Positions 21,441 through 63,155 of a stretch of 64,000 bases of DNA are shown here, piece after piece. Under the pieces are notes generated by a model. The model worked only from the letters and a program-made list of their open reading frames with translations. It did no database searches and was not told where the DNA came from. Source of the stretch: Macrostomum lignano. Its lineage: Eukaryota. How positions within the stretch are numbered: the stretch's first letter is position 1; the number at the start of each line of letters is the position of its first letter. Location of the stretch: contig NIVC01002285.1 of assembly GCA_002269645.1 (NCBI GenBank), positions 122,835-186,834 of the forward strand, read 5' to 3'. Both the position numbers and the translations under genes were made by a program.

Positions 21441-21479
21441 CCCTATCTTTAATTTCCCATTCCCATTCTACCATCTCCG

Positions 21480-22706: not shown

Positions 22707-22707
22707 A

Positions 22708-27480: not shown

Positions 27481-27506
27481 TAGATGTTTATTTCAATGAG
27501 GATAAA

Positions 27507-27911: not shown

Positions 27912-28181
27912 TCACGGCCAGCAACCCAACCGATATCGAACGGAGCGTGCGGTTGACTGATTCTGTAGGAATGAGCGATCACCCCCATCTTCTTTATCCC
28001 TTGTTACAACTGCCTTCTTCGTTTTAATCCCACTAAATTTTCTATATACAACAGCTGACACAGTTTCCCTAGTGGCATTTTCAGCCTTGGCACCAACTGT
28101 TTCAGTCTTGACTGCATTTATCATCCCCCTTTCCATTAGTAGACCATTGCTATTTACAGGATTTAGAAGACCAACTGTCAT
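27912..28181 (-). CDS. Hypothetical 89-aa protein, divergent from gene X
   Basis: ATG at 28181, head-to-head with gene X; fused to the truncated penton in the right arm. Confidence 0.3.
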   Translation of the reverse strand: MTVGLLNPVNSNGLLMERGMINAVKTETVGAKAENATRETVSAVVYRKFSGIKTKKAVVTRDKEDGGDRSFLQNQSTARSVRYRLGCWP

Positions 28182-28387
28182 TCGCCATTAAAATGAAAAA
28201 ATTATCGTCTTGCTACTTGCATGCAAAATTTGAAAAAATCTGGGCGCGGGTTGTCCCTTTGACATTTTGGTAAAAGCATGCGGAATGTTGTTTTTTCCCA
28301 TCCGGGCTACAGCTGCATGCCATTTGCTGAGGCTTATATAAGGCACTAGTCCCACAGCCGCCACGAACAGCAACCTGGCTGACCGAG

Positions 28388-34056: not shown

Positions 34057-37000
34057 ATGGAATCAAAGCCGGAAGTCAATGTGTCTACTCCAGTAAGTAG
34101 TGGACCATACTACTTCACCGGGACTGGACCGCAATACAACCTCCTGCGTGCCCTTATGCGCCGACAGCAGAGCACCAAGGCCGAAGTCATGGGCATCCAG
34201 GTCGTCCCTTGGACTCCCAACTGCCCGGACTGCGCGCCCACAACTCAGCGTTCTCTGAGACAACCGACCCGCAAGACGACTCATCTAAACACTCACGGTC
34301 AACTAGGCGTATTACTCCTTGGTTTACTGATCACCACTCTGATCGGAACACGTAACGGAACGGCATCACTCGATCACCCAACATTCGTCGATACACCAAT
34401 GGTCTGCCCGCTCAAAGGCCCTGTTCGAATTTTCAAGATCCCTACCGAAATACGGTGCGAGTCCTTCAACCCGCAAGAAACAAGAGCTATCCCAATGCGT
34501 CTACGGCTCTACACCTCTAACCTAGCAAAGACCCGGATAATGATGAACATGTGTTATCGGGAAGAGATAACTATCAACTGCAATCGTCTTGGCTCACACC
34601 TACGCACTTTTCGTGAAGCTCACATAACTGTGAAACCGAAACCGACAACGCCACTCGCTTGTCTACAATGGGTCGTGTCCAGAAATTCACCTGATGGCCA
34701 ACTACAAATAGTAGCCACAGTTTCTGGCCAACAACTATTCCGGTCAGCCATACAGACAACTTTGCTGGACAACTGCCTCGCCTCTCGTACTCAAACGATA
34801 ACGGCATCCACCTTGATTACTAGCATCGCCGCTTTTGCTAGTCCAACAGATCCGATGGAATCACTGGCGTTTCCGATCAAACATTGTGTCTATTCAACAA
34901 AAGGCTGCACCATCCCGACAACTGTGGAACAGATGATGCGTTTTAATCTACCACATCAGCTTCTGACAGAGGCCTGGACACAACTAACTCCACCGGCCGT
35001 CGCCACTCTCCACGCAGCAGGCGAGCGAAAACTAACGTTGTCCTGGAATGTACCACCACAATCAGATTGTTCATTAATACCGTTCCGCGCTCTGAATGGA
35101 CTACAGCACTCCAACTTTTTCATCAACGACGACCAAACGCTAGCTTTAACATTTGCAGCTACACCGCCTCAGCACACTCTTAGCTGCTCCGCTGGCACCA
35201 AAAAGCTTTACCTTTCCGAGCAAGGACTCTACGTCGAAGTACTTGAACAAGAACAACACTTCCTTAATGCGATAAGGCCAACACCTCCAACTCCGACTGC
35301 TCAGACAAACCAGTCATCGGACGCCACTCCCAATACGGCAGAAACGAAATCCCGTCCTAGCCGTTCACTACCCTACAAACAAATCGCCATGGCAACTTCG
35401 ACAACTGCGACAACTTCGACAACTGCGACAACTTCGACAACTGCGACAACTTCGACAACTGCGACAACTTCGACAACTGCGACAACTTCGACAACTGCGA
35501 CAACTTCGACAACTGCGACAACTTCGACAACTGCGACAACTTCGACAACTGCGACAACTTCGACAACTGCGACAACTTCGACAACTGCGACAACTTCGAC
35601 AACTGCGACAACTTCGACAACTGCGACAACTTCGACAACTTCCCCAACTCCGACAACTTCCCCAACTCCGACAACTTCCCCAACTCCGACAACTTCCCCA
35701 ACTCCGACAACATCGACAACATCGACAACGACGACGACACCGACAACATCAACGACACCGACGACATCGACAACATTAACAAATCTAAGGACGAGTACCA
35801 CCACGACAGCCACCAGCACAACCACGCTGAAATAGACGCCGACCACACGAACAACAACAGATGCGCTGAAGACATCAACCAACCCTACAACAAGTCCTAC
35901 AACGACAGTCGTAAAATCGACGACTGACATGACCCGAACGACTACGCACCAAACGACGACGAAAACTGATCCAACAACGCAAGAGACGACCACGACGAAA
36001 CCAATCACGGACAGTCCTACACCAACGACACAATTGGTGGCCTCCACAACCACGACGCAACCGCAAACATCGACAGTGACGACATCAGAACCTCCAAGAT
36101 TAACGGAAACTGCTCTAACTCCATTGACAAGCCGAAGAACCCACACAATGTCAATCGATCCGCCAACGGACGCCACAACACCACAAACCGAAGAATATCA
36201 ATATGATCCACTGGCAATACCATATTTACAACGAGACGCAGCGCCGACGTTAGACAAAGTACGTATTCGACGCTCAAGTGAAACGCCAGCCGACAACCAA
36301 TCAGCACCTCAACTATCTACAAACTTGGCCTCAGCAGAATTACTTTCCAGCCGCCTACAAGCCCTCGAGATGAAATTACACCAAGACCTCAAGACAGTAC
36401 ACACGCAACTTACTAAGACACAATGCAAAATGTACGCCCTCAACCTGAGATACAGTCGCACACTGTACTACACCAATCCGACACTGGCTGCACGACAACT
36501 CTTCAACGACCGCTTCTTATACGCTCAGTCGATTGCTGGTCACTTTTTCGTACATCAGTGCAAACCACTTTACGACTTCACATTCGTCCAACCGGAGTAC
36601 AAGTCCAATAGATGTTATACGCGACCACCTATGAAATTTCAACTACAAAACAGGAGCGTACTAGCTTATCTGGATACCACCACGCTCATCGTCTCAACCG
36701 CCAAACCACCACTAATACCGTGCGAATATCAAGATGGATACTATCTACCGAAAGATACCTCTATCTTCAAAGCAACGACCAATTTCAGCGACATTCGCGA
36801 ACTAGACTCACATCAGGTCACCGACGAAACGTACCTTCTACAATCACTTTATAGCGACCTGAGACGGAGCATTTTCACACCCATTGGCGATGTCAACTAC
36901 AGCACTCTGCGAAGTCCGGTCACCGTAACAGACATGATGGAAAAATTCATGCAAACAAGAGACTTCCTAGTTACTGTCTTTAAGCTGAACAATAACAAAA

Positions 37001-37461
37001 CCCGCCAAGAACTGCTGGCGGACGCCTCAAGCTTCAGACTGGACGCTACACAAGCATTTAAGAATCTCTGGAGCACCACCATCTTTAATTGGGAACGATT
37101 CCGCGACAACCACATGGAACGTTTTCTGTTCAGCTCCGCGGTCATTGTATATGCCGCGCTACTAATCTTCATCTGCAATATTGGTCGTTTCTGCGTCGCG
37201 ACCACGGTACGATACGGACGTACGCACCGTCTGATGGTCCTCCGAACAACAGATAGCCCAAGGAATAGACGGCGCCATGCATCATTGCATCCGATCGGCT
37301 CCAAACCAAATACCAATGGTACTATTAAACTCATCACCGCCACGACGGGCTCCGCCGGCCGCCCCGTCAGCACCGCCAATCGAAATAACCTCGACAGCAC
37401 AGCAGACCGAACCAACACCAACACCTTCTACGACAACGAGGAAACCACTACCAGCGCCTAA
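34057..37461 (+). pseudogene. env: Envelope-like glycoprotein (class III, gB-like fusogen) with mucin-like insert; single in-frame TAG at 35833-35835
   Basis: Signal-like LGVLLLGLLITTLIG; PMVC...C Cys pattern; furin-like RIRR at 36262-36273; SRLQAL...QC...NPTLAARQL...C...CY..P segment; C-terminal TM (FLFSSAVIVYAALLIFIC). Both ORF-track halves share one frame. Confidence 0.7.
35392..35712 (+). repeat. 18-bp coding minisatellites: ~14x GCGACAACTTCGACAACT (ATTSTT), then 4x TCCCCAACTCCGACAACT (SPTPTT)
   Basis: Directly visible perfect tandem arrays. Confidence 0.97.
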
Positions 37462-37499: not shown

Positions 37500-38770
37500 T
37501 CCTAAAACATCTCACCACGCGCACGTTGATAGCACTATGGTGCACTATGCCTCCAGCGACAAGACACAAATGCACGGCTCTCATCGACAGCGGCGCCTCA
37601 ATTAGTTGCATCTCACCGGCTTTTGCACAGAAACTGAACGCCAAGATCGCACCACACTCACTTCACGTGCAATGTGCAGGCGGACAGCTGAGAGTACGGA
37701 ATCACATTGACAATTACCATTACGCGAACGAAACACTCTACTATGAGTCAGCAAAGGGCAATTCCAACCTGCGACTAGTAATCCCAACCGAATATCAGCA
37801 GGCCCTACTAAATGAGAGTCACAGTTCACCGTTTGGCGGCCACCTCGGTTTTGAAAAAACCTGGTACCGGCTCTCTCGATACTACTACTGGCCGAACTGT
37901 TACAATGACACCATGGACTACGTCAAGAAATGTGAAATCTGCCATCGAGCGAAACCTGGTCGAAAAGTCCACCCTGAACTCAGAGCAGTTAAGTTCGCTA
38001 ACGTCTTCTCACACCTAACCATCGACCTGGTCGGTCCACTACCATCTGCACACCATCAGCGAGACGTCTACAAGTACATCTTGACGGCACAATGCGGAGT
38101 TAGCAAATTTCTCTTCACAATCCCACTAGCTGACACAACATCGTCAACGGTGTGTGAACACCTATTTCGCCATGTCTTCGCACTCGCTGGCATACCTGCT
38201 AACATCATCCTAGACAACGGACCACAGTTCATCTCTACGGAATTCAGACTATATGGCAGCCCTCGGAATTAAACTAATCTATACCTCCTACTATCAGCCG
38301 TCAAGCAACTTCGTCGAAAGAGCGCACCGAACACTGAAGCAGGCACTCACCACGTTCGTGCACGACCAGCCAGACAAATGGACAGAGCACCTACCGGCAG
38401 TGACGCTCGCCCTCAACACTGCCGCCCACACTGTGATGCGCGAATCACCATTTTACCTATTCTTTGCTCGCGATTTCCAAGCTCCGAGCACGCGAATCCT
38501 TGATCACCAGATCTCTGTTTACTCCGACAACATACAACCATTGGAAACCATTTGCTCCAGCATTACTCTGGCTCAAGATGTCGCCCTCCATTACCTCCAC
38601 GCTACTGCAGAGGAGCGAGCCCGACGACATAATGAGGAGACTCCACCAACGACTTACCGACTACAACCTGGTTCTCGCTGCTACCTAGAGATCTCCGGAC
38701 AAAAAGCCTCAAAGTTTTCTAACCCTTATCGAGGACCGTTCCGTCTCCTCAAGCGGGTATCACCGCAGAA
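37500..38770 (+). pseudogene. Truncated aspartic protease fused in frame to Gypsy integrase; RT and RNase H absent
   Basis: CTALIDSGASISCI; then HSSPFGGHLG...CEIC (H2C2), IDLVGPLP, DNGPQF, (frameshift) ERAHRTLK and YRGPF. Confidence 0.88.
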
Positions 38771-39639
38771 CGCTCTAATACAGGACATCAACAAGCTGAA
38801 TGCTCCACCAATGGTCACGCACGCCTCCAAGTTGAAACCATCACCTGATCAACTCCCGGTTGAGATATTTCTACCTCAACTCACCCGGACGCTGACTCAA
38901 GAACACCACAACCACCAACAGCCGCTGACAAAGACGGTCAGCAAGCAGACTGATGATATCCGGATGACAGGACCATGCCGCCGCCGAAGAAGTTGCCGCG
39001 GATTCGCAAGCGGAAGGCCACCTCTGCTGCTGACAGCTCGGACTCAAATACGTATCGTTGAAGCGATTGCGCAGGACCTCATGGAGGTCTGCAAGCCGCC
39101 GATAGAGCAGCTCGTGAGTCGTCCGTCTGGGCGAAAAGCGCCCACAAAGCCAAGAATGCGAGCCCCGCAGAGCCCGCTTTCAGCTTCTGCTGACGGCTCG
39201 GAGGAGGAAACTGATGACCTAGTGGAGGACCGCGATTTGTCACCGCCCTTTGACGCTTTTACCTGAAAAGCATCAGCTTAGATCGGGCGCTTTAGTGACT
39301 TCTTCAAAACCAAGAAAAACAAAAATGAACTATTGTTATGGTCCTATCTAAATGCTTGACCATTGATTTTTGCCTGGCTAGTTAGTCAGAAAGCTAGCTA
39401 GTCTGAAAACTAGTTAACCCGCGCTATTTTTTAACCAAAAGTTGAAGCAAGGACTACTTAACAACACAGGACGTTACACTTGCAAATATCCAAAGACACA
39501 TACATTCAAAGCGGCATGTTAGAATTCTGCCAATATTTGCAAGTGTAACGTCCTGTGTTGTTAAGTAGTCCTTGAGTTGAAGTTCAAATGCAAGTCAAAT
39601 AAACGTGTAACATCTCATTGTTTTACAGAAATCAAGAAA

Positions 39640-40234
39640 TGTGTTTTTCTTGTTCCTTGTCTCTTCCAGAGACGGCTGCAACATGTAGTGGGGGCTCGAT
39701 TAGTCACTCCACCAGGCGGGCAGCTGGATCTGTTAAAGTCTAAGCTAATTTCTGCCTAGCGGGAGTCAAAACTCTATCGTGGGCGCCCTTCGATGCTTAA
39801 AACCCGCTTTTGTGTTTGTTCTGTTAAGCTATATCCCAATGGCCGGGAAAGTAAAAATTTTTGGTTCCAATTCTAAAATTCAAGCAGTAAGGTGCCTGTG
39901 CTTCATAAACGAGCTATGCAGCGGTGGATTAGACTATGAGTCTGTGTGTGTGCAGACAAGTACTTATGCAGAAGGCCTAGATTCATCTGTCCGCACTCCC
40001 CTCCTGGAGTCCCTCTTTTCGGATACCACTACACTGAAGTTGGAGAGCGGCTATCGTTTAAGCATGGATAAGGAAAATTTCCCTATAGCAATCTCCTGCA
40101 GGCTTCAGTGCAACCCGAGGCTGTTCCTGAACCTGTTCTTTAGTCGGAAATTTATAGTCTGTGGTCCTCAAAATCTCGAGGAACTGAAGCAAGTGTTGAA
40201 GGTTTTCCAACATTTGCCCCAAGCAGCCGTCTAA
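39640..40234 (+). pseudogene. TATA-binding-protein-like gene, element A (stop and frameshift)
   Basis: KLYRGRPSML, KLYPNG, VQTSTY, ENFPIA, LNLFFSRKFIVCG; homologous to 53453-54025. Confidence 0.7.
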
Positions 40235-45337: not shown

Positions 45338-45615
45338 TCTATCGCTTTGACTTTTTTAAACCAAGTGTTGATGAGTGTGCGCTATGCCGTGATTTGACTA
45401 AATATAGCGACAGCGAAAACTTGGTCTACTACTAATCTTGCTAAACTGTTAGAGGCCTAGTCAATTTGTTTTTCTGCGGCATATACGAGGAGGGAAGTAG
45501 CTTGGGTGGCTTTAGCATTATAAGTAAAGCGAAAACGATATTTTAAAACTCTACAAGAAACTAACAAACACCTCACCCCAATCTCTGTTCCAGCTCTATC
45601 TGCACACTGCGCAAC

Positions 45616-46257
45616 ATGGACTCGACCGGCTGCTCTTCAGTGGACGAGGAGCTGCGAATCTTCTTGGAGGAAGCCGGAGCAAAGATTCCGCAACGGGCGA
45701 CCGAGCGATCGGTTGGCTACGATCTAGCCAGCTTGGAGAAAAAAACCATAACTGCACAAAGCTGGTGTGTACTCTATACCGGAATAAGTATCGATCTGCA
45801 AGACGGCACGTATGGTCGAATTGCTTCTCGCTCAGGCCTGGCTGCGCGCTACGGAATCGTTGCCGGCGGCGGAGTTATCGACCCAGACTACATCGGACAG
45901 CTGCAAGTGATTCTTTTCAATCATTCGACTTGTGACTTCAAGGTCGAGCCTGGCGACCGCATCGCTCAATTGGTTTTGGAGCGTGTCGCTACACCATCTG
46001 TTGTTGTTAATCGTGCAGGCAGGCCTGGGAAAAAGGAAGGAGAAGAAGTGAAGACCAGGGCGCACGACGAGGGACTAGTCAACGACGATGACAAGACCAT
46101 CCCTGTCCTCGTCGATGAAGAAGGGAACGAAGGACCTATCGAGCCGCCGAAGCGCATTCGCGGAACGGGCGGATTGGGCAGCACCGGAATTGGATCGCTT
46201 TTGCGCGGCGTAATGGGACCTGATCATGATGACACTAACAAAGCTAAACGTAGCTAG
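45616..46257 (+). CDS. dut: dUTPase, element A
   Basis: GYDL, GRIASRSG, GVIDPDYIG, GDRIAQL, RGTGGLGSTG. Confidence 0.93.
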   Translation: MDSTGCSSVDEELRIFLEEAGAKIPQRATERSVGYDLASLEKKTITAQSWCVLYTGISIDLQDGTYGRIASRSGLAARYGIVAGGGVIDPDYIGQLQVILFNHSTCDFKVEPGDRIAQLVLERVATPSVVVNRAGRPGKKEGEEVKTRAHDEGLVNDDDKTIPVLVDEEGNEGPIEPPKRIRGTGGLGSTGIGSLLRGVMGPDHDDTNKAKRS

Positions 46258-46400
46258 CACCGCAAACTCAAACTCTAATACTTTCTTGTTTTAAACAACT
46301 GCAAAATATACACTACCACCAATCAACGTAATAGTCAACAGATTGTATAAGCAAAACAAATTTCCCTACGAGCTATGACTTCAAAATATTACTAGCAGAA

Positions 46401-46837
46401 ATGGTAAGAGACCAGAGCAGGCACTTTAAAAAGAGCGCAAGAAAAACTAAAAAAAATCTCGAACTACTACTACTAGTAGTCGTAGAGCAAAACGGAATCA
46501 GCGACTACAGAGAGGAAGTGGTATTGTAAATTGGGTTATTAACCATTTGCCGTTTGAACTACATCTCCCGGGCTACCAATTCTGTGGACCGGGTACTAGG
46601 TTGAAAGAACGATTGGCGAAAGGCCAGACCGGGAAAAATAGGCTAAATAGGCTGTGTATGCTGCACGATAAGGCCTACGAGAAGAACTCTGAAACGAAAG
46701 ACCGTCTCGAGGCGGACCGCTTGCTGGAACAGGGCGCGCGAGAAATAGCCAACGATCCAAGCAGTGGTTTGGGTGAGAAACTAGCCGCCAAATTTGTAGC
46801 AAAGGTTATGCAAGTAAAGCAACAAGCGAGCGCCTGA
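46401..46837 (+). pseudogene. Basic N-terminus plus parvovirus VP1-type phospholipase A2 (PLA2X), element A
   Basis: LPGYQFCGPGT...LCMLHDKAY; 1-nt frameshift in an A-run near 46450; no intron. Confidence 0.85.
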
Positions 46838-46842
46838 GCTAC

Positions 46843-47539
46843 ATGGAGACAAAGCCGCCTATCTACGATTTGCGGCTCGCGCCTGATTCAACAATCATCG
46901 TGGCGGGGCCTTCGATATCTGGGAAGACAGAATGGGTTTTGCGTCTGAAAGAGTAGCCATGTTTAAGAAACCACCACAACGGCTAGTCTGGTGTCACGGG
47001 ACCGATCTTCATGACCAGGAACGCGGGAAAATTCGGGCTTGTTGGGACAACTCCGAAGGAATACATTTTATTCGGGGTTTTACGGGTGCATTGTTGGGGA
47101 GTTTACGATCGGGAGATCTTTTGGTTGTAGACGATCTGCAAAGTGAGATTGCTAAATCCGCCGACTTCACAGCTGTCTTCACCAAACACGCCCACCATTT
47201 CCCATTAAACTGCATATACCTATGCCAGAATCTGTTCAGCCGTTCAGACGCGGGGGCACGAACAAGAAGCTTATCTACAAGCTACATCTGTTTAACCCGC
47301 TCGGTACGAGATCGAACCGCAGTTTTGAATCTTGGGAAACAGATGTATCCAAAAAAAGTAACTATCTCGTCCAAGTCTACGAAGAAGCAACCGATGGAAA
47401 ACCGTACTCATATCTACTTATCGACTTGCGTCAGGATACGCCAGATTTCTTGCGACTTCGAACAGGCGTGTTTGCGGGAGAGCTGATGATAGCCTATGGT
47501 AAGCCTGGCAACAGAGAGCTAAAGGCGCCTGGGTTATAA
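46843..47539 (+). pseudogene. FtsK/A32-like packaging ATPase, element A (frameshifts)
   Basis: Walker A AGPSISGKT, Walker B LLVVDDL, YLCQNLF, PYSYLLIDL. Confidence 0.9.
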
Positions 47540-47588
47540 GCAAGCCATGTTATTTCAAGACTGAACCATCGCCACCAAGGAAACAAAC

Positions 47589-48121: not shown

Positions 48122-49842
48122 TTCTAAATCTTGTAAATATCAATGGTCTACTAATGGAAAGGGGGATGATAAATGCAGTCAAGACTGAAACAGTTGGTGC
48201 CAAGGCTGAAAATGCCACTAGGGGAACTGTGTCAGCTGTTGTATATACAAAATTTAGTGGGATTAAAACGAAGAAGGCAGTTGTAACAAGGGATAAAGAA
48301 GATGGGGGTGATCGCTCATTCCTACAGAATCAGTCAACCGCACGCTCCGTTCGATATCGGTTGGGTTGCTGGCCGTGATGACCCACTCTGTTGTGAAGAA
48401 TGAAGACGGTAAATATAGCCAATCCTAAACAAAGAACTTCACTTTCGATATAAGCTTAGACAGCAAGGGAGCTGTATCCGAGAGGATACACTCTAAAAAA
48501 GCGCAATCTCTATTGTATAGCAGTATCAATATAGCTTAACTTCTTAAATTTTGTTTGAGTTGTGAGCGAGAATCTAAATCATTTCGGACGCGCTGCTGAA
48601 GCTGTTAACGACCCTAGACGGGGCCGTTCGCGTTCGCGAAATGGACACCATATAGATACTTTATATTTTAATAGTTCGTCGCAATTTCCGGAGTTTGACG
48701 AGTTTCCGGATGCCGACTACTTAAATGAACTATGCCGGATCCCTGAAGAGGGTAAGTTTGGTACCTGCTTGGTTATGTTTTAATTTATCCTCATTGAAAT
48801 AAACATCTAGTGTTGCGACTTTCCTCCGCAGATGCCATCAGTCCTGAACCGCAGGGTGATCATGGACGCTGGGCACCGTGGACGTGGGTGTCGAGTGCGT
48901 GGACGTGGGCGAGGGCCCTGTGGAATAATATATATGGCGCTGCGGGCGGAGACAGCGATGTTGAATCTAGCCTTCAAAGTGATTCTGGCGAGGATGTTCG
49001 ACCGACCGCTGCGATTCTCGAGTCTTCCGTCCTGGGCGAGGGTGCCGTGGGCGGCGGAAGCGCTGTGCAGTCCGACTTGGTGAGCGAGCCTTCTAGACCA
49101 AGCGAGAGCGTCGCGGGGGGCGGCAGCCATCGTGAGATTGGCTCCGTCGAGGCTCGTGTTTGTCGACAGTCACGGGATGGACCTAGCCGGAGCGAAGGCG
49201 CTATGAGCGGCGACAATCCTCGCTGGTACCCATTTCTTAACCATCCTCACGCATCTCACGTCTACGCCCGACATCGCCCTCTTGATGGGCGCGGGCATGG
49301 ACGGGTGCGTAGTAACGGCGAGAATTGGGTAATCATCGCCGAAGAGCCTTCGCTTTATGGTCCATTGCGCATACTGGTTAGAGAGAATAGGCCTGGCCCG
49401 CCTATTCGACGGGCGACTTCTGACTCGGACTCGGGCCTCTGTGAATTTTAAGCATTGTGTTTACACGCCCGCCTAATAACTAATAACGTTACAGCCGTTA
49501 CAGAGAATGCAAGCCCGTTGCATTGAGCATGTGTGAATGTATGTGAAAATAAATATTAATCGCTTTCAGTGTTACTTCAATGCGATTATAATACCGTGTT
49601 CTTAATTTGTGCAATACTTAAGTTTCTATCCAATGCTTAATACGTATTATGTGGCACGGCAAACTTAGAACAGTGTTTAGATCTTACACTAGAACTAATA
49701 CGGCGAGCTTAAACCTAGATGTAGTAATTTTCTCTACGAGCCTTTGAGTGAATAACAGAGTCTAAAGACCAAGACAGTTTAACGATTAAGATTAACAAGA
49801 TTTCATTTCATACATGGAGTTAGTTGAGAATGAAAAATTATA
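48122..49842 (+). repeat. Right arm of the 1.7-kb inverted duplication
   Basis: Reverse complement of 26444-28168; carries copies of the three small ORFs. Confidence 0.95.
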
Positions 49843-50024
49843 AGTAGTAAGCGTTTTTTACGCCCATAGCTCGTTTTTACATGGCGAAATCAATAGGAAG
49901 TTCCAAGCACTAGTTCAATGGGGATACGTGCATAGCCTGTTTTTGCATAGCAAAACTAATACAAAGTTCTAGGTTATAGACGATGAATTTCCATCCTGCA
50001 CAGGCGCGTTACCAAATCTCGTCC
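49843..50024 (+). repeat. Polinton-type terminal sequence of element B
   Basis: AGTAGTAAGCG start; colinear with 24510-24691. Confidence 0.8.
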
Positions 50025-50249: not shown

Positions 50250-50843
50250 TTACCGGCGGCGCAGTAGGGGTTGAAGAACATGCTTGAGAAAAAGGCTCAG
50301 AGAGGAAAACGCGCGCGAGAAAGGGCTGCTGCGAGCCCGACCATGTTGTCGCATCACCCAGTGGATGAACGAATTTAGATCCTTTCCACTAGCAAGTTTA
50401 AAAAACAAATAGAACAGAATCCAGACTCCACAGTGGGCGGTACGGGGATCCTGCACCGCATAACGCGTGTAACGCCAGTTTTTTGGATCTCCACAATTTC
50501 GGCTCATCCACTGGGAGATTTCAGGCAGCGGGTGCAAACCTAGCGGATCAAAGTATTCACCTATCCTAGCTCGTCTAACAGCGCCAATAGGGCCTGCACA
50601 GACCCAGACAGCAACCCAGTGTTTTCCGGGCAAATTCCTGGGGTCCGTGTTTACGATGAAAAAATAGTTACGCGTGTCTTGAAAGTACGGACTCGTGTTT
50701 AGAGTAGGGATCGTTGGTAGAGAATTGCTTGGGTAAACTCCCATAAAAACTGCATCAGGATAAATACGCAATAGTTTTAGGCAGACCGAGCGCAAAAACA
50801 CATTAGTTACGCCAGATAGAATAGTAGTGTTATCTACTTCCAT
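50250..50843 (-). CDS. Adenain-like cysteine maturation protease
   Basis: VNTDP...PGKHWVAV, EYFDPLG, VQ...HCG give the His/Asp/Gln/Cys catalytic set. Confidence 0.92.
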   Translation of the reverse strand: MEVDNTTILSGVTNVFLRSVCLKLLRIYPDAVFMGVYPSNSLPTIPTLNTSPYFQDTRNYFFIVNTDPRNLPGKHWVAVWVCAGPIGAVRRARIGEYFDPLGLHPLPEISQWMSRNCGDPKNWRYTRYAVQDPRTAHCGVWILFYLFFKLASGKDLNSFIHWVMRQHGRARSSPFSRAFSSLSLFLKHVLQPLLRRR

Positions 50844-51170
50844 ACAGATCCAGGTACCACGTCGCGGAACTCCGTCAGATGCAGCTGCTTGTCGAATAGT
50901 CCGCCCACGATGACGTTGTAGACTTTGTCCGTGGCAGTCGCGAAGCGTAGTTCCAATCGTACATTGCCCTCTTTATATACCTGTGCGCCAGCTCCGACAC
51001 CCACCTCACTGCCCAGTCCGAAGGCGTAGATAGTGTAGCCGGCTTTGTACTCTGCAATCGTGAACCCCAAGTCGCGGTTACGCAGATGCAACCCCAGCTG
51101 TTGCAAAAACCACCCGTACTCCAAAACGCAGTCCCCACTATCGCTGTAGTCGGTTTCGAGGGGAGTAGTA
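50834..51170 (-). pseudogene. Major capsid protein, C-terminal remnant
   Basis: EYKAGYTIYAFGL...GNVRLELRFATA...VIVGGLFDKQLHL..FRDV resembles Polinton MCP C-termini; sits directly upstream of adenain; 5' part missing. Confidence 0.7.
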
Positions 51171-51584: not shown

Positions 51585-51746
51585 TGTTTGAACTTACAGC
51601 TTGATATGGCTTAAAAGCGTTTCGGGAGAAGTAAAGAATTCAGACGATTTGGGTGAACTATCCGGAAACCTTTTCAAAAAACAGTATATAAGGAAGTGGT
51701 GTTTTAGAATCTTCCGGAGCAGACCGAGGGAGACTAACCGACCATC

Positions 51747-52926
51747 ATGGCGTTTTTCGCTAAAGAAGAAGTCTTAAGCGCACAGCAGTTTGTTTCACCC
51801 GAGACGCGGCCTACAATCCATGTCGAGCCAGCTTCTTCGCCCAAGTTTGCCAACAACTGTCAGTTCCGCGCTCTCTCTTGGACTCCGGTGGGCGACAAGC
51901 ACGAGAAACTACCGATTCTACTGCAGTCTCAACAGCCGATTCTACTCTTTCGCGGTTTGCACCGAACAGACAGCGGTGCGGGCACAGAACACTCGGTCAA
52001 CGAAGGACGAGAAGCTATCGCACTTGGTTTTCAAGCCAAGGGCATTTGCCCTCAGCTGGTTTCAACTTTGAGGTAAATACAATCCGATTCTTTGGTTTGT
52101 GAACCGCATCCCAGGTTAGAAATTAAAGTTTACTGCAATTTTCTTACGTTGCTATCTGTCATATTCTTTCCAGAGCGATCGAGAAGTCGATCGAGAAGGC
52201 ACTTCACCAGCAATCTGACCGAATGGGGCTCATTAGACTCACTAAGAGTCCTGACGCGAGCGGTGCCAACCCAATTACCTGGATCGGCATCAAGCCCAAC
52301 TATCCATGCACAACATTCTCCACCAACGAGGGCAGCCGCACAATCCAAGAGGTTTCGCCCCGAGACTTCAGCGAGCGAAGCGGACTCTACCAGATCACGG
52401 TGCAAATCACTTCGCTCTACCTTCCGAAGGGGCGCCAGCCTGGCGACTTGCCGCCTGCATCCGATCTCTGGTGTGGCTGTCTGATGGAAACACTACCGGC
52501 CTGATAGGGAACCTGCAGGGACCTCTGTCCGAGTATCGGATTGTGCATGAACATAGCAACGAGGAGAAAATTTCAAGTTTGCCTACTCCAAGTCTTCTCA
52601 CTGCCACCGGCAAGAATCGAAGTGAGAGCAGCACCACGCCGAAGAAGAAGAGGAGAACCTCATCACCACCGCCGCCACCAAGCAAGAATTCGAAACGTCC
52701 AAGGCCTGCCGCGAGCGCTCCTAAGAACCAGCCTGCTTGCAAAGGTGGACCAGCAAGCGATCCCGACTGGGCTGAAGTACCGGCAGTCAAGAAGCTCGTA
52801 AGTTCGCCTACGGTTCAGCCGGGAAAGCGAGTCGCCTCTAAGGATCTCTCGTACGCCAAGCAGCTAGCTGGAGCTGAAGCCTCGAGCAACAGATCCTCCG
52901 ATTCGGATTGCAGTCTGTTCGCTTAA
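51747..52926 (+). CDS. Gene X of element B, two exons, possible ssDNA-binding protein; one frameshift near 52470
   Basis: TATATAAG at 51685; intron 52073-52173 joins frames (TLR|AIEK); C-terminal PKKKRR and an acidic/Ser tail. Function is inferred. Confidence 0.55.
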
Positions 52927-53452
52927 GCTCCAACTGGTGTCATTGCTGCGAGGGACTTTTTCAGCATGTCTGACGTCTCGCACTATCATAAACTTTAACT
53001 ATTTCTGGCAAATTTTTAGTAGCAAGGACGAGCACCTGAATATTCGTAAACATTTAAATAGATCGGCTCGCCTTGGATTCAACTTCCTCACATGTTTTAA
53101 AGCATATAGCTCGGGTTTTCTAGCCTATCCTTTTAAACACAAATTGTTATTTTCATTAGATGCTCTACGTCGTTTACATCGCTTTTCTTCTCGTCAATCT
53201 GCTGCTTGGCTTTTAGACTGCAAGGCTGGTTTACTCGCCTTAGTGCTTATCTTTAGCAATTCGCCTGCCTACCTACTGCTATCCGCGAGACATTTAGCCT
53301 GACTGCAATAGCGCTTTTGCTAACTACCCGACTTAATATTATTATAATAAACTGATGACCAAGTTCTTTGTCTTACCACGACTTATTCAGACTTATTTCT
53401 GGTTTGAAATTTTCAGAGAATTGTTCAGAGTGTCGGGAGCGCACAACTGGAT

Positions 53453-54025
53453 TTGAGCGGTTCCGATGGACTAGATTTATTTCAGCTTCAGCTAAAACTG
53501 CTAAAAAGCGGATTCAATTGCAAACTCTATTTTGGACGACCCTCTATGCTGAGAGTTGCTACGAGTGCTGGCTATACTATGCAAATCTATCCTGGTGGAA
53601 AAATTACAATTTTTCGATGTGCATCAAATCTCAAATTAATATCCACACTCCTGGCAATTCACAATTCTGTTTTTAAGCTGGATTTTAATTCAATACGTAT
53701 TCAAACCTCAACATATGTTGGTGAATATGAATTTTATAGCGCAACAGACAGATTTTTTATGCTAAAATTAAGAATTGGATGTTTCATTGGTTTCACTGTG
53801 AGCTACGATGCAGAAACTTTTCCTCAAGCCGTGCGATTGCGCTGCAGCTGGAATAAACGTTTGTTTGCAAATTTGTTTTGTTCAAAAAAGCTGGTCATAA
53901 TGGGCCCAGCAAATGCCCAAGAACTCTCCTCTATTTTATCATGTATTGAAACATACTTAAAGCTTTCGATTCCTAATTCAACGCATAATATCTTGCAGTC
54001 AATCGATCCTATATCCAACAACTAG
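53453..54025 (+). CDS. TATA-binding-protein-like protein, element B
   Basis: Two TBP-like repeats: LDLFQL...GRPSML...QIYPGGKITIF, and IRIQT...SYDAETFPQAV...ANLFCSKKLVIMG (cf. SYEPELFPGLI...LIFVSGKVVLTG). Start uncertain; ATG at ~53356 is out of frame. Confidence 0.75.
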   Translation: MSGSDGLDLFQLQLKLLKSGFNCKLYFGRPSMLRVATSAGYTMQIYPGGKITIFRCASNLKLISTLLAIHNSVFKLDFNSIRIQTSTYVGEYEFYSATDRFFMLKLRIGCFIGFTVSYDAETFPQAVRLRCSWNKRLFANLFCSKKLVIMGPANAQELSSILSCIETYLKLSIPNSTHNILQSIDPISNN

Positions 54026-54034: not shown

Positions 54035-54714
54035 ATGGCAAATATCGTTTTTGCACCGAGCGTCTTCATCCTTGAAGGACTGTTGGGAGCGGGCAAATCC
54101 ACCGTACTGCATAATTTGGCACTACGATCAAGACTAGACAACTGGAGGAAGCGTGCTCATTTTCTGCCGGTGCAAATTTTTGCCGCAGCGAGGGTCCTTT
54201 TTGCGGCGCCCTGGAGAAGTTTTATTCTGGTGAACTGTCAGCATTTGCTTTTCAAACGTTGGTGTACCAAGAGCTGATGGGACGCGACATGGCCGCAGTT
54301 CAATTTGCGACAAACGAGGTGAAGGAGGGCCGCCAGCCGATTGATCTGATAGTGATGGACCGACACCTACGATCCGGAATTGCCTTTTCAAATCTGTTGT
54401 ACAAACAGGATCGGTTGACTAACTTTGAACTGAATCTGATGATTCGGTTGTATGAAATGTTTACCAACTGCTTTCAATCTGATGCCACACTAATCTATCT
54501 GGACATCACACCCGAGCTTGCACTGGAGCGCATTCAACAGCGAAACCGAGGTGGGGAGCAGCACATTACACTGAGTTATCTTGAACAACTACGGGAGGAG
54601 CTGCATGCACAGTTTGCTCTTTTCAAAACTGTGCACAAGATCCGAGTGCTGCCAGAGACTACTCTTGAGGATGTTGTGGACACAGTTTGCAAGATTATTA
54701 ATCCTTCTGGCTGA
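54035..54714 (+). pseudogene. Deoxynucleoside kinase family, element B (one frameshift near 54160)
   Basis: EGLLGAGKST, AFQ, VMDRH, IYLDITPELALERIQQRNRGGEQHITLSYL. Confidence 0.85.
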
Positions 54715-54949: not shown

Positions 54950-55718
54950 ATGATAAAAGCACGTTTTTTAAAGAAAAAAAAATTGTTATTCCAGCCAAGA
55001 GCTCGCTGCCTGGTTTGTCGAAAGACCTTCCGCAATGTGGCTGCGCTGCATGCTCACTCGCATGGAGAATGCTTTGCGCCAGATCGACTGTTGGAGGGGC
55101 CATTCGAGGAGCTTCAGGCGCACCCACCAGACGGTTGGTCTGTTCACCTGGAAGAAAGTGCGCATCAGGGGCGAGCCAACTTTCTGCAGTTTGTTCCTAA
55201 TTCCGCTGAATCTCCATCGCAAACATCCGCCACCACCGACGACCTTCTACCTGCCGACAAGCTGAACCAGCTGCGCGCCCCAATCTATTGGCTTTTCAAT
55301 ATGACTTTACAAAAAGGACTGATGTTGAGAACATGTCTGCATGTCAAGGTGAAGCTGTTTCGGATGCTGGCGGATTTGCGGCAACACCCCGATCTCTCAA
55401 CAGGCGCTTTAAATTCACCAGCAACTGAAATAATCTCTGCATATTTCAACAGTCACATGGTTACAATTTCACTGGATAAAGAGGGCACCGGTACTGGCGA
55501 ACTGTCTGAGGAGAGTTTCAACGACTGGTTTATGCGTGCAATCACCGAAGTGACAAGCAAAATTGACAGCTTCCAGAAACGTGGCAGTGGTTGGAAGTAT
55601 GACAGCATTGAACAGCTTGACCTGATGCTATGCCCCTATAGGAAGTCTCGTTCTCGGCCAAGCTACAACCCGGGCAGTAGGAATTCCACAGCGGCAGAGC
55701 AACAGCTGGGCGGTGGTA

Positions 55719-55753
<35 letters not shown>

Positions 55754-58700
55754 GCCAGAACATTTAAAGTCCCGTTGTCGGTTGGATGCAAGAGAGGAGC
55801 CGTAATATTTTTGAAGCCAAACAATAATCGGCAGCCTAACTGCTTCAAGTATGCAATCGTAGCAAGCATCTTTTATGCCCAAGTGAAGCGTCCTCATTTG
55901 AAGAGCAGCTATACAGAACATTTGCGAGAATTGGATTTTGGAACTAAATTACAAGTCGGATCAGCGAGACATGCCAAATGCTCATATATTAAATTTTTGA
56001 ACAAAAATCCAGGGTTAAGTTTGCGTGTATTCGTTTGGGATTACGAAGCAAAGACTGCCGTGCATTACTTTTCGCGCCACTGTTCCCCGGAGACAGCCCG
56101 CTTCATGGCAAACTGTTTGTTCATCCCACCATATGGCAAATTCAAGCTGGGCCACTACATGCCTGTTCGTAATTTGAACTCACTTCTAAGCTGCCGAGGC
56201 AAACGACGGCGTGTCTGCCCAACTTGCCTGGCTCCGTTTTCGGAAAAAATATCATGGGACTTCATTCTGAACGAGCACCAATGCATCGGAGGGTGCGAGA
56301 GCCAGTCCTCGCTCCGCTGGATGTCCGAGCCGCTGCCACAAATACGGGAGGTGCGCAGGCCGCCAATTGAGAAGATGCCTCTGCCGGAGAATGCTAGTCT
56401 TGAGTTTACCGAACATGCTGCAAGGCTGCCGGCGCTGTACGTAGTTTATGCCGACATGGAATGCCTATGTGCACCGCCGGACGCCAGCGCTCCACATGTG
56501 GGAGCCTCTCAAAAGATTCGCGAGATCCACAAACCGCTTTGCATCGGTTATCGGGTGGTGGCCTGTCCCGGAGTTGAAAGCCGGCTGCCTTCACTATATG
56601 GCGAAAGGTCCGCCTGTTCGGTTATCTATTCGCGGCCCAACGGTGGAGATGATTGCATTGGGCTGTTTTTGATCAAGCTCCGCCAGCTAGCAAGCGAGAT
56701 CTACCGACACGCCAAGGATGAAACATATGTTCCTTTGCTTAAAAAATATCTTCATCTGACGGACCGTGTCGAGAAGCGGCGCCACAAGCATTGTCAGCTA
56801 TGTAATCGCGTTTTTGAGCTTGATGAACGCCAAGTCCTGGATCACGATCATCTTACTGGCCTGCCTAGGGGAGTTTTGTGTGTCAGCTGCAATCGCAAAT
56901 TGAGCTTGAATCGCCACCGGCTGTTGGTCTATTTTCACAACCTGTCGGCATATGATGGCAAGTTTATTGTTCGCCAAGTTTACGAAACCTTTTCCGGTGA
57001 AGAAGTTAAACTTTATGTTTTGCCTGAAAATCGCGAGCGATTCAAAACGTTCTCTATCAAGTTCAAGCTGCCTGCTGCTGATGGGCAGCACCACGTTTGG
57101 TTTGAAATCTGCTTCAAGGACACTTTTGCGTATTTACCAACTAGCCTAGCAAGTCTAGCTGAACGCCTGCTCCCTTCTCAGCTGGTGCACACAAGCAAAC
57201 TATTGGAGCAATACCCGAGACTACGACCGGAGACGTTGCAGCAGAAGGGAGTTTTTCCCTATTCGTTCCTTGATCGAATGGACAAATTGGACAGCGTAAA
57301 ATCTCTGCCAGCAAAGGAGAGGTTTTTCAATAGACTAACAATGCAGCATTGCTCTGACGCCGACTACGCTCGAGCCAAGGCCAGCTGGGAGGAATTCGGC
57401 TGCCACACTCTGCGTGACTACACTACTGCCTACCTGCGATTGGATGTGCTTTTGCTCTGCGACGTGTTTGAAAATTTCAGAAATAATGCAATCAAAGAGT
57501 ATCAAATTGATCCCGCTCATTTTCTTGGCTCTCCAATGTACAGCCTGGCGGCGTGCTTGCTTCAACTTGCAGAGCCAATTCAACTCTTCACTGATACAGC
57601 CATGTATGCTGAAATTGAGAGCTCTGTGCGCGGCGGTTTCAGCTTTGGGACACGTCACGTAACCACAGCAAATAACTCGTTGGTTTCGCTCATTCGTCAA
57701 GATTTGGACAGGGACGAGGGCAACTTTGCGAGCCTGAGGGCAAATGCACCAGAAAACACCTTTTTGGTTTACTTGGATGCAAACTCGCTCTATTCTAGTT
57801 GCATGGTACAACCTCTACCATACAAGAACTTTCGTTGGCTTTCTGCTCGAGATGTGAATCGCATACCATGCGATAACACCCCCGGCGCAGGCTATTACCT
57901 CGAAAATCCGCAAGTGAAGAGTCAAATGCTAGACTGGCTGACGAAGTTTTGTTCTGAGGAGCGAGGAGCTTATTTCACAGTCGATCTGCATTATCCCGAG
58001 TTTCTACACGATAGCACTGCTGACCTCCCACTGGCGATTGGGCACGAGATTGTGAGAGAAGATCGGCTGACGGATCAAATGCGGCAAGATTGGACAGCAC
58101 TTCAACGACAACTGAACCCCGAGCGATATGCCTCTGCCAGCTGTTACCAAGACGTGAAGGCATTCAAGAGCCCTGCGCGCAAGCTCATCGGTTCTGTCGA
58201 GCACAAGCGCGAATATGTGTTGCACCACCGTGCATTGCGACTTTACCTCGAGTTGGGGATGCGAGTCACAAGGGTCTATCGCGTCATCTGTTTCACCGAG
58301 AAGCCAATATTACGCTCTTACATTGAGCGCAACATTAGCCGACGAATAGAAGCCAAGACGGAATTTGAACGTGATCTGTTCAAGCTACTCAACAATGCTT
58401 TGTTTGGCAAGTTTCTGCAACGTGTTCGTGACCGATTGTGCTTCAAGATGTGCACCGACGCTGCAAAGCTGGAGTCCTATGTCAGCATGGAAAGCTTCCT
58501 AGATGTTATCATTTACAACGAGAATTTGGCGGGAGTTAGTCTATCTCCTCGTCAAGTTTTGCTTAACAAGCCAATTATCATTGGCGCGTCAATTCTGGAC
58601 ATTGCCAAAACTATGGTTTACAATTTTTATTACAACCATGTTCAGGCTCATCATTCGCTTTCATGTGCACGCGTTCTGGCAGGCGACACCGACAGTCTGA

Positions 58701-59230
58701 TGATGGCACTGGTGATGCGCAGACCTGGTGACACGCCCTATAATTCATTGTTCAAGGACCTGATCGCTCAAGGACTACTTGATACCAGCAACTATCCGCC
58801 GGATCATGCCCTTTATTCTACCCAACACAAGGGTCGGCTGCTTGCATGGAAAGACGAATTTGCTGGAGCGGTTCCAATCGAGTTGGTATTTTTACGACCA
58901 AAGAACTACTCTTTTCTCTACGTTACCGATACGATTCGGCAACTCTCTCGATGCAAAGGCGTGAGCAAGCAAGTGGCTCGCACGTTCAAGCACACGGCCT
59001 ACCTCTCGGTCTTGGAGAAGAGAAGAGTGATGTATGCAAGCTTCGCTCGAATTGCTTCTAAGAAGAAAGTTGTTTTTCTCATGGAACAGAAGAAGCTCGC
59101 GCTCGGATTTTTTGATACAAAGCGCGCTTGGACAACCCTCCTTGCTTCTCAACCATTCGGACATTGGCGGCTGCGAGCAGCATGCGAAACGCAGGCAAGA
59201 ATTACTTTCTTGATACTGTTTAGCATCTAG
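54950..59230 (+). CDS. Protein-primed DNA polymerase B (EndoVII type), element B, intact
   Basis: Uninterrupted ORF; N-terminal CLVC...HAH zinc finger, NCFKYA/GHY OTU-like dyad, YADME, DHDHLTG..RG.LC..CN, FHNLSAYD, YLDANSLY, KLLNNALFGK, AGDTDSL, RPKNY. Confidence 0.95.
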
Positions 59231-59657
59231 ATGATACAGTAGCATCTTTAGCTTAATATTTTTTCGTTTTTTTAATTTCAGGCAACAATCGATTCGGAAA
59301 AGGAGGACTATTCGATGGATGAAAATTGACTTTTGCTTTGTACATTAACACCATATATGCCAGGCATCGTGTGTAGACTAGTCATCATTTTAGCATGGTG
59401 TCCTATCTCTTGAGGTTCACTCATTTTCGTTGGCTGACACAGCGCTCTAGAATAAATGTGTATTGAATGACTAACGAACGTGATTGGTTTTTCGCTCCTT
59501 CTTTTGCAAGAGTATATAAGCCCAGATGTTGAGACTTTAGTTTAACTTTTGTCCGAAAAATGCAGTCGTCCTCTTCGCCTAGCCAACCGAGTTTAAGAAG
59601 TAGGAAAAGCCAATTATCGAAACTGTTCATTTCGCCATATACACAAACGAGTGGTTT

Positions 59658-60428
59658 GTGCAATTTCCCAGTCCCGCCACCAACTCCCACTCCGAGAATG
59701 CAAACAAAAAATTTATTTTCAATGTTTCAGCCAGTACAATGCAGCGCCAGCAGCAAGAATCTCTAAATCCAAGTGACACTAGCAGCTGTAAAGACGCAGC
59801 GCCAGTTCCGCTACGCCTAAATCCCGATTGGTGTCAACAATACCTCGCAGGCTCACCACCGATCGAGAAAAATCTAATTGTCCGCCTTCTCAGCAATCAT
59901 GCTGCGGTTCCGGCCAGACAGACAGAGGGCTCTATCGGGTATGATCTGACTGCAGCCGAGACCAAGACCGTCCCTGCGCAGGGACGAGCGATTTTTGATA
60001 TTGGGATTTCAGTCCGAGTACCGGCTGGCACCTATGGAAGAATCGCTGGGCGCTCTGGTCTGTCAGCGTTTCACGGAATCACGGTGGGCGGCGGAGTAAT
60101 TGACCCAGACTACTGCGGACGAATTACGGTGATTCTCTTCAACCACGGCATACGAGACTATCATGTTCGCATCGGCGAAAGGATTGCGCAGCTGGTTCTG
60201 GAGAAGGCGGAAATCGCTCCGGTCAAGGTAGAGAACTACACTATCGCTCGCGGGAAGAAGCGTGAAGCGCTGGACAACCAGCGTCAGTTGTCAGCGTCAG
60301 CATCGTCAGTTGCGGAGACCGCCAAGGTTGATGAAGAAGAGAAGATGAAGAATCTGGCGGACGCAATCGTTCAACAAGAAGCTTGCAAGCAGCGGGGCGA
60401 TTCAGGCTTTGGCAGCACGGGGATGTAA
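59658..60428 (+). CDS. dut: dUTPase, element B (start uncertain)
   Basis: GYDL, GRIAGRSG, GVIDPDYCG, GERIAQL, RGDSGFGSTG. Confidence 0.93.
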   Translation: MQFPSPATNSHSENANKKFIFNVSASTMQRQQQESLNPSDTSSCKDAAPVPLRLNPDWCQQYLAGSPPIEKNLIVRLLSNHAAVPARQTEGSIGYDLTAAETKTVPAQGRAIFDIGISVRVPAGTYGRIAGRSGLSAFHGITVGGGVIDPDYCGRITVILFNHGIRDYHVRIGERIAQLVLEKAEIAPVKVENYTIARGKKREALDNQRQLSASASSVAETAKVDEEEKMKNLADAIVQQEACKQRGDSGFGSTGM

Positions 60429-60494: not shown

Positions 60495-60708
60495 TTCAAG
60501 AATAAACAATTCTGCATGCATATAAAGACTATAAGTTATGCTCCAAAATTGCAAGGAACAAATATATCTGTATCTGAATCCTTAACGCATATAAGCTATC
60601 TTTTATTCAAGAATAAACAATTCTGCATGCATATAAAGACTATAAGTTATGCTCCAAAATTGCAAGGAACAAATATATCTGTATCTGAATCCTTAACGCA
60701 TATAAGCT
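60495..60708. repeat. Perfect 111-bp tandem duplication upstream of PLA2X
   Basis: TTCAAGAATAAACAATTCTGC...GCATATAAGCTA repeated at offset 111. Confidence 0.95.
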
Positions 60709-61260: not shown

Positions 61261-61967
61261 ATGGAAACTTTCAATCTGCAGTTGGCACACGATTCCTCAA
61301 TCATCTTGGCCGGACCATCAAACTCTGGCAAAACTGAATGGGCGCTGCGTTTGCTGCGCGAACGAAATTTGTTATTTAAGCAAGCGCCAACGCGTCTCGT
61401 GTGGTGTCATGGCACGGACCTGAGTCCTGGTGAACAGCACCGCATTCGTTCAAGCTGGGAGGAGGGCGGGAGCGGGCAGCATAATTTGATTCGAGGATTT
61501 CCGCTCGAGCTTATCTCTCAACTTCGCCCACACGATTTGCTGGTTGTCGATGATCTCCAGAGTGAAATGGCCAAGTCCCCCGAATTTACAGCAATTTTTA
61601 CAAAAATGCCCACCACACACCACTAACTTGTCTCTATTTATGTCAGAATCTCTTTCATCGTTCTGATGCTGAAGCGCGCTCGCGAAGCCTCTCTGCTAGC
61701 TACATCTGCCTGACCCGAAATATTCGCGATCGAACGGTTGTTCAAAGCCTAGGGAAGCAAATGTTTCCAAAGAGGAGCAACTTTCTAGTTCGTGTCTATG
61801 AAAACGCAACTGACAATAGGCCCTATTCATACCTGTTTATTGATCTGCGACAAGAAACTCCCGACTTTTTAAGGCTTCGTACTGGTATTTTCCCGGGTGA
61901 CAAACAGCTTGCGTACACCTCTGGTAAAAGCAACTCTGTTTCACTTGATTTTATAAGCAATCCATAG
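61261..61967 (+). pseudogene. FtsK/A32-like packaging ATPase, element B (1-nt deletion near 61607)
   Basis: AGPSNSGKT, LLVVDDL, YLCQNLF, PYSYLFIDL. Confidence 0.9.
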
Positions 61968-62987: not shown

Positions 62988-63155
62988 GTGACTAATTATA
63001 AGCAAACTTTGGGGTTGAGTATGATTTGACCAATATTTAAATGCCTTTATTAACAGAAAAAGCTAGAGAGCCTGCTCGCTTTCTAAGTGTGCCATTTTAT
63101 TGCAGAGTGCGGCCCGCTTGAAAGATAAGCACCAACGCCGCAATTTCTGCAAAGC

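Follow-up and report, generated by a model that had tools for sequence, protein, structure and literature searches.

The flatworm Macrostomum lignano carries, within a Polinton/adintovirus-like element, a gene that judging from its sequence is a real but divergent TBP. It occupies positions 53417 to 54025 of the 64,000-nucleotide stretch that was analyzed (the window), and both TBP repeats are detectable by sequence. The analysis suggests that a small flatworm element keeps a private version of TBP for switching on its late genes, and we favor, with moderate confidence, the reading that this element-encoded minimal TBP is a late-promoter factor acting with host TFIIB and Pol II. What appears to be new is a herpesvirus-like late TBP in the form of a bare core with a TFIIB stirrup, carried by a small Polinton, whose box and lobes seem to change together between families.

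If this is true, no smaller viral late-transcription system based on TBP would be known, and a mobile element would depend on a flatworm leader AUG. Animal virions of Polintons and adintoviruses are, to our knowledge, barely documented. Now that a candidate factor, an early box and a late box particular to each family can be named, the order in which these elements express their genes becomes open to direct tests in a flatworm kept in the laboratory. The TBPs of the two families described below, which apparently differ in box specificity, would also serve as natural variants through which lobe-by-lobe reading of DNA and the need for all four intercalating Phe residues could be approached.

The early unit and its TBP-like gene

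The element was labeled Polinton/adintovirus-like because the TBP-like gene is accompanied by kinase, protein-primed polymerase, dUTPase and ATPase genes, and because of the genes of a related element (L090, 11 ORFs). The latter adds an rve-plus-chromodomain integrase, a Pox_A32 ATPase, a C48-like protease, Adeno_PX and a PLA2-like gene, some of these matches lying below curated cutoffs. The window's Polinton runs past the contig end. Capsid gene labels are our assumption throughout, Pfam giving no match. The main features of the early unit and its surroundings are as follows.

51685..51692, + strand: canonical TATA box of the early unit, TATATAAG
51747..52926, + strand: SSB-like upstream gene (exon 51747-52072, intron 52073-52173, exon 52174-52926), its frame disturbed in the assembly
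52798..52803, + strand: GTAAGT, a candidate splice donor in phase 0, within the SSB-like gene's tail
53395..53416, + strand: pyrimidine-rich 3' splice site ending in CAG, phase 0, abutting the TBP domain
53417..54025, + strand: TBP-like coding exon of 202 codons, its first ATG falling within repeat 1
54035..54714, + strand: deoxynucleoside kinase (PF01712, E 9e-16), split over two frames in the assembly
54995..59230, + strand: protein-primed DNA polymerase B with an endonuclease VII-like domain (PF03175, PF02945), behind a phase-0 acceptor ending at 54994
59739..60428, + strand: dUTPase (PF00692)
39670..40234, + strand: second TBP-like copy, broken, of another subfamily, behind an acceptor ending at 39669

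The SSB-like gene lies at 0.92 to 0.94 in the Atlas to viral clusters, and DUF2738, which we take to be an SSB domain, occurs in 10 to 15% of the members of two of them. A TFIIB-like gene was not found in the elements, and none of the 11 ORFs of the related element has a cyclin-fold match, a search that a very divergent TFIIB could escape. Genome-wide, PF00382 gives 15 matches on 7 contigs (versus 150 scored for PF00352), and the two loci that we viewed resemble split host genes.

A search with the single TBP-like sequence found no TBP in Pfam and none in the PDB (0 of 2 matches). When 13 relatives, here called family A, were combined into a profile, 35 of its 37 PDB matches were TBPs (best E 1.2e-9). 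PF00352 was matched by 11 of the 13 family A rows, the window copy not among them, and hhalign to the host TBP gave 96.8%. For this protein the Atlas gives viral TBP clusters at 0.95; the recognition value is under its threshold.

A structure model built from the 13 rows has two beta-alpha-beta4-alpha repeats (pLDDT 84, pTM 0.63) and TBPs as its top matches, with the TBP lobes right and the saddle geometry absent (rmsd 9-10 Å, TM 0.44). The saddle appeared only after 10 rows from families B and C and 3 cellular rows were added. The resulting 24-row alignment (11 family A, 10 family B/C, 3 cellular TBP-family rows), which is TBP-leaning by construction, gave a model with pLDDT 92 and pTM 0.80 that matches TBPs at Z 14-17, the next fold following at Z 8.5; against an archaeal TBP, 164 residues align at 2.1 Å rmsd (Z 17.2). 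A first-pass annotation of this DNA had taken the protein to have a TBP-like saddle, and the profile match, the hhalign result and the 24-row model support that fold as a prediction.

The DNA face of the protein

The same annotation had begun the gene at 53453, which is an internal TTG. The domain opens 12 codons earlier, at 53417, with RIVQSVG, the counterpart of TBP strand S1. Within the open frame 53453-54025 (+), the motifs GRPSM, IYPGG, ETFPQ and ANLFC are all present; the sites that matter here are the following.

53537..53548, + strand: repeat 1, RPSM loop (F99 region, Phe absent)
53582..53599, + strand: repeat 1, Q-I-Y-P-G-G, with L114 changed to Gln and F116 to Tyr (Tyr at 53588)
53807..53824, + strand: repeat 2, D-A-E-T-F-P, with the E186/E188 TFIIB stirrup, F190 and P191 (Phe at 53819)
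53870..53878, + strand: repeat 2, N-L-F, with L205 changed to Asn and F207 retained (Phe at 53876)

The broken copy at 39.7 kb has GRPSM, LYPNG, ENFPI and LNLFF, so that the pattern first noticed, RPSM and YPxG in repeat 1 with FP and LF in repeat 2, can indeed be read in both copies. That copy, however, is interrupted by an in-frame stop (39757-39759) and by a frameshift right after YPNG, near 39840.

Residue numbers are those of yeast TBP, and positions outside a set of 17 DNA-face positions carry the numbers that we take them to have. On TATA, repeat 2 of TBP lies over the 5' half of the box and repeat 1 over the 3' half. Counts refer to 10 nonredundant rows of family A, that is, the 13 minus 3 near-duplicates. 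The 17 DNA-face positions are those in Table 1 of PMC12529657 (partial text).

F190, F207 and E188 are invariant (10/10 rows), and P191 is retained in 9 of 10. The acidic TFIIB stirrup is retained, with E188 throughout; the E186 position is Asp in 6 of 10 rows and Asn or Ser in the other 4, which is a point against the late-factor scheme set out below. Among the four intercalating Phe residues of canonical TBP, F190 and F207 are kept, F116 is Tyr in every row, and the F99 region is Phe-free in the favored registers. The asymmetric loss of phenylalanines originally proposed therefore stands for F99 and is softened at F116, where the residue is still aromatic and the change conservative. The original motif list was also incomplete, since the whole DNA face has been recoded. 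The central Asn pair (N69 and N159) is replaced by Gln/Leu and Thr/Ser, taking the S1 register from the 24-row model's TBP match; L114 is Gln, V122 Thr, T124 Phe or Tyr, V161 Thr, L205 Asn and T215 mostly Met.

The residue that falls at F99 varies by aligner: Tyr38, Pro42 or Gly40. We regard it as distinctly improbable that all four aromatic intercalators are effectively kept, with Tyr38 (or Phe) standing for F99, RP inserted and specificity close to that of the host TBP. For that register, hmmsearch, MAFFT and hhalign against the host TBP all pair KLY with KRF, and the aromatic column of KLY is Tyr or Phe in 9/9 rows that cover it. In both structure models, however, strand S2 stops at Tyr38, as S2' does at Tyr130, and S3 opens at Met44; Tyr38 would therefore be the equivalent of Y94, in line with the Y94/Y185 pair. 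Moreover, an alignment of family B with the host TBP is gap-free here and puts Pro at F99 and Tyr at F116, and family A, aligned to family B, follows with RPSM in the place of RFAA. At the level of alignment, family B settles much of the F99 register question. The Met-to-Tyr spacing is 14 residues in 9 of the 12 matching rows. Met44 may be A101 or I103, and with either assignment no aromatic stands at F99; one Phe would thus be lost and one be Tyr.

Family A comprises about six subfamilies of 29-66% identity, with open frames and the same invariant residues. The dN/dS ratio is 0.15-0.16 for L031 compared with L033 and L034, two unsaturated distant pairs, and 0.14-0.57 in close pairs, where changes are few; comparisons between subfamilies are saturated at synonymous sites. 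In the Pro42 register, 11 of the 17 DNA-face positions lie within the 35 most conserved of 185 columns (p 1.4e-5). Helix H2 has a reduced basic patch. PMC7221094 (partial text) links this patch with four factors (TFIIA, TAF1, Mot1 and Brf) and assigns TFIIB to the acidic stirrup. The pattern points to a protein maintained as a DNA binder. That the gene is instead a decaying captured host TBP with no present role is barely credible: many genomic copies are broken, the one at 39.7 kb included, but six subfamilies keep open frames and common invariant residues, the place of the gene in the element is fixed, and the conservation, with dN/dS far under 1, largely refutes this reading.

Promoter boxes and the role of the protein

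TATAWAW lies 5' of the first gene of the early unit in 7/7 copies, and in two of them (the window and L036) the early box contains TATAAG too, a point against a clean division between early and late boxes. The boxes found before other genes of the window are these.

59515..59521, + strand: TATAAGC before the dUTPase, readable also as canonical TATATAAG
60701..60707, + strand: TATAAGC before the PLA2-like ORF and the packaging ATPase, with a duplicate at 60590
61952..61958, + strand: TATAAGC, 49 nt 5' of the ORF at 62001, presumably a minor capsid gene (Pfam without match)
62997..63003, + strand: TATAAGC before the protein-X-like ORF
45519..47541, + strand: late boxes of the second element, TATAAGT at 45519 and TATAAGC at 46346 and 47535

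In seven late stretches from six elements, "late" being assigned by gene content and not by timing, TATAAGC occurs 29 times in sense and never in antisense, versus 1.8 expected from first-order Markov resamples. The same stretches hold 3 occurrences of TATAWAW. The distance from box to ATG is mostly 41-60 nt and rises to 124-165 nt for the major-capsid-like and protease genes. C comes next in 27 of 38 TATAAG sites, and TA precedes in only 1. Over the whole window TATAAG is not enriched (26 versus 21.7 expected), the signal being confined to the late modules.

A second Polinton family, family B, has a different late box, YTTAAGA. Family A has TATAAG 36 times in sense and 3 in antisense (7.4 expected) and TTAAGA once (14.1 expected); five family B elements have TTAAGA 36 times in sense and 5 in antisense (10.5 expected) and TATAAGC once. 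These counts are not independent, because elements within a family are related, and since some boxes lie inside coding sequence, codon constraint can contribute. An unguided count of 6-mers 5' of long ORFs put TATAAG (tied) first in family A, in 11/44 regions, and TAAGAA first in family B, in 21/45. All promoter-box data come from the Macrostomum lignano genome. TAAG is present in the late boxes of both families. It is also the core of the baculovirus late promoter, a likeness that is probably convergence.

The two families have in common AAG at box positions 4-6 and Pro/Tyr in repeat 1 of the protein; family B has Ser, Thr or Asn at P191 and a different 5' half of the box. P191 favors T at position 1 (PMC12529657, partial text). 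This covariation fits the 5'/3' orientation from which the first-pass annotation had argued, although two families amount to two data points. The annotation's proposal that the protein still reads 5' TATA with an altered 3' specificity has real if indirect backing in the boxes of the structural genes, TATAAGC departing from TATAWAW only at positions 6 and 7; the binding preference itself is a prediction. Suitable box sequences for comparing the family A and family B proteins and the host TBP are TATAAGCAA, CTTAAGAAA and TATAAAAG.

In the scheme that we favor, host TBP and Pol II would transcribe one early unit (SSB-like, TBP-like, kinase and polymerase genes) from the canonical TATA box observed there. 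The TBP-like mRNA would be cut out at the conserved acceptor, most likely by spliced-leader (SL) trans-splicing, and the terminal AUG of the leader would become its start codon. The product, predicted to fold as a TBP saddle, would grip the 5' TATA half and recruit host TFIIB through repeat 2, because the Phe pair, P191 and the acidic stirrup are all retained there. Repeat 1, with F99 lost, Tyr at F116 and Gln at L114, would read or tolerate G-C at positions 6-7 of TATAAGC. That box fronts the structural genes and would drive their transcription late, on the presumed early/late order. The reduced H2 patch may allow escape from Mot1/BTAF1 and TAF1. TRF2, which is without the Phe residues that contact TATA, fails to bind this sequence (PMC4422821, partial text), and this, together with the loss here of both central Asn residues, counts against our scheme.

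In a rival account, which we judge unlikely, the late box is bent or held by the TBP-like protein, but specificity and the connection to Pol II come from another protein encoded by the element, much as in the late complexes of herpesviruses. KSHV ORF24 does require an extra domain and partners (PMC12529657, partial text). Several element ORFs are without a Pfam match, and the partner could be an unannotated ORF of 140-240 aa or the SSB-like protein fused by splicing, which a conserved phase-0 donor (8/8 copies) would permit. Yet the acidic TFIIB stirrup, absent from ORF24, is retained in our protein, the box shifts between families in step with TBP residues, and a fused SSB-like/TBP-like joint is absent from the contigs of four runs. 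It is more improbable that host TBP reads TATAAGC adequately and that the element protein is a decoy or dominant inhibitor, tying up TFIIB or blocking host and early promoters. F99 and both Asn residues are lost with E188 retained, as this would have it, and TATAAG, whose sixth base is G, is tolerated by TBP as a weak site. A decoy, however, has no need to conserve a recoded DNA face, and the family B box, YTTAAGA, does not fit a TBP consensus, the two boxes being mutually exclusive between families. The annotators' suggestion of a decoy for host TBP partners is disfavored for a related reason: the DNA-facing residues are the best conserved, while the H2 patch, which binds most host regulators, is reduced to 0-2 Lys/Arg in 9/10 rows.

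A broader version of the late-factor reading is possible but somewhat short of probable. A Polinton of 15-20 kb would run a two-stage cascade on one captured 200-residue TBP, its lobes recoded independently along with the box halves to give orthogonal TBP-box pairs that use host TFIIB and Pol II, and the start codon from the host leader would tie the late switch to trans-splicing. The change in repeat 1 would then pair with the AAG common to the families, and the loss of P191 with the shift from TAT to YTT.

Like cellular TBP (PF00352; host locus L051) and TRF2/TBPL1 (host locus L057), the protein is a predicted two-repeat saddle that keeps F190, P191, F207 and E188; the basic phosphate contacts of cellular TBP at the R196, K201 and K211 positions are also kept. 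Unlike cellular TBP, to which it is about 20% identical, it has no Phe at F99, Tyr at F116, neither central Asn, polar residues at L114, V122, V161 and L205, and a reduced H2 patch, and it lacks both an N-terminal extension and a start codon of its own. With the vTBPs of beta- and gammaherpesviruses (KSHV ORF24, EBV BcRF1 and HCMV UL87), which serve TATT late promoters, it shares a viral TBP fold, a variant late box and, presumably, host Pol II; as in those viruses, the variant box stands at late genes and the canonical box at early genes. L114, V122, V161 and L205 have turned polar in ORF24 as well (Table 1 of PMC12529657). By the partial text of that source, ORF24 keeps all four Phe residues, lacks the TFIIB glutamates and is a 752-aa multidomain member of a six-member complex, whereas the Polinton TBP consists of a 200-aa core alone, which has the stirrup and has lost one Phe. 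It has neither the Pol II-binding N-terminal domain nor the extra C-terminal domain of the herpesvirus type, and E188 is present.

Viral TBPs are known in Nucleocytoviricota and herpesviruses (partial texts of PMC7221094, PMC12529657 and PMC12917281). The TBP-like proteins of Nucleocytoviricota, including poxvirus VITF-3, are the nearest feature clusters and the top viral fold matches, and a divergent N-lobe signature is common to them and our protein (PMC7221094, partial text). Most of them occur together with a virus-encoded TFIIB and RNA polymerase (PMC7221094 and PMC12917281, partial texts), neither of which was found in the Polinton. With adintoviruses, Polintons and Mavericks (PMC8502044, partial text) the element shares pPolB, a chromodomain integrase, an A32-like ATPase, a protease, and PLA2-like and protein-X-like genes. 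A TBP-like gene is named in a figure legend on MELD viruses in PMC8502044 and its preprint; the accessible text of PMC8502044 says nothing of a promoter box, an early/late scheme, trans-splicing or a residue-level analysis for it. Our literature search, outside which lay most subscription papers, figures and supplements, found no account of a Polinton TBP with a promoter box, nor of Polinton trans-splicing.

Start codon, copies and neighboring elements

The acceptor before the TBP-like exon is at the identical site in 10/10 copies from 6 subfamilies, joining the domain's first residue in phase 0. None of these copies has an ATG before Met44; the first in-frame ATG of the window, 53546, lies within repeat 1, and a start at Met44 would remove S1, H1 and S2. 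In the TBP-like gene of L007, the acceptor itself is an in-frame stop. The polymerase gene has a genomic Met in L007 and in window copy 1 and an acceptor at that place in window copy 2, L031, L033 and L034. In L033 and L034 an in-frame stop lies just 5' of it; in window copy 2 there is an in-frame ATG 45 nt farther 5'.

In M. lignano, 30% of genes are trans-spliced with a leader that ends in ATG (PMC8629364, partial text), and a flatworm leader AUG is able to start translation (PMC9851317, partial text). We think it likely, from the arrangement of acceptors and codons, that the spliced-leader AUG supplies the TBP-like start codon. A more doubtful route is cis-splicing from the upstream gene, which would yield an SSB-like/TBP-like fusion and could coexist with the leader-AUG form; a GTRAGY donor stands at the same KxL|VS motif, in phase 0, in 8/8 copies. 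Contigs from four runs, which we take to be RNA, span the TBP-like gene but showed neither the donor-acceptor joint nor the leader at 53417 among the contig ends listed. The intron of the upstream gene is skipped in contigs of runs X8 and X1 and retained in X6 and X15, so that the early unit would be transcribed and spliced, if the runs are RNA. The runs also carry small insertions relative to the assembly in neighboring genes, and some breaks in the window may therefore be assembly errors or alleles.

The 3' end of the leader has 135 matches in the genome, compared with 22 for a control. An SL RNA gene was not found among the five leader loci that we viewed, none of which has a donor next to the leader. 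Three of the five (L122, L125 and L126) look like processed, leader-bearing retrocopies.

The protein has 74 matches in the genome, 5 of them identical, including the window; 4 of the 5 other near copies have 0 mismatches over 609 nt. The PF00352 profile (150 scored of 330 candidates) found many family B copies besides three loci each for host TBP and TRF2-like genes. The host TBP is identical to a Macrostomum lignano protein. Outside this genome, family A has 4 real matches plus a repeat artifact (P0007), and another search gave the same 4 and one archaeal-type TBP; family B has 6 matches. Stretches of viral and metagenome contigs contained no TBP-like loci (0/125, 0/62, 0/71 and 0/24).

Family B (L066, L102-L109) is abundant. 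Its TBP-like gene bears its own ATG, ends the structural module, itself behind a YTTAAGA box, and overlaps a frame that we take to be DEDD-exonuclease-like; our PC4-like gene label in this family is presumptive too. A third TBP-like type (HPRTL / VYPTG / EMFN / LF), 34% identical to family B, lies behind TATAAAA at L111:8889-9482, and a clear late box was not found for it. In one family A subfamily (L038:3840-5246 and L039:3872-5290), the TBP-like frame continues stop-free into the kinase, for 469-473 codons, and an acceptor precedes the kinase ATG.

Around the first Polinton copy, a retroelement integrase frame runs straight into the tail of its SSB-like gene (38253-39266), and a Gypsy-like element with an env-like ORF (34057-37461) interrupts it. 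An inverted repeat of ~1.7 kb (26441-28168 and 48122-49845; 98-99% complementary, arms 20 kb apart) splits the same copy with its second arm. A perfect 42-nt inverted repeat 5' of the broken copy's acceptor (39448-39574) is in L040 and not in L036 and is thus a small insertion. At 50250-51160 (-), an oppositely oriented Polinton, head to head with the early unit, is represented by its protease gene and by the terminal part of a major-capsid-like gene. Labeled by eye, a further broken pPolB of a different type lies at 3003-7131 (-), and frames for endonuclease, RT and RNase H at 8855-14133 (+) make up a non-LTR retrotransposon. A diverged, LTR-like direct-repeat family at 19111-29605 bears TATAAATA. 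Finally, a 24-nt tandem array with TATAAGCC lies 5' of a family B polymerase gene (L098:6522-7270).
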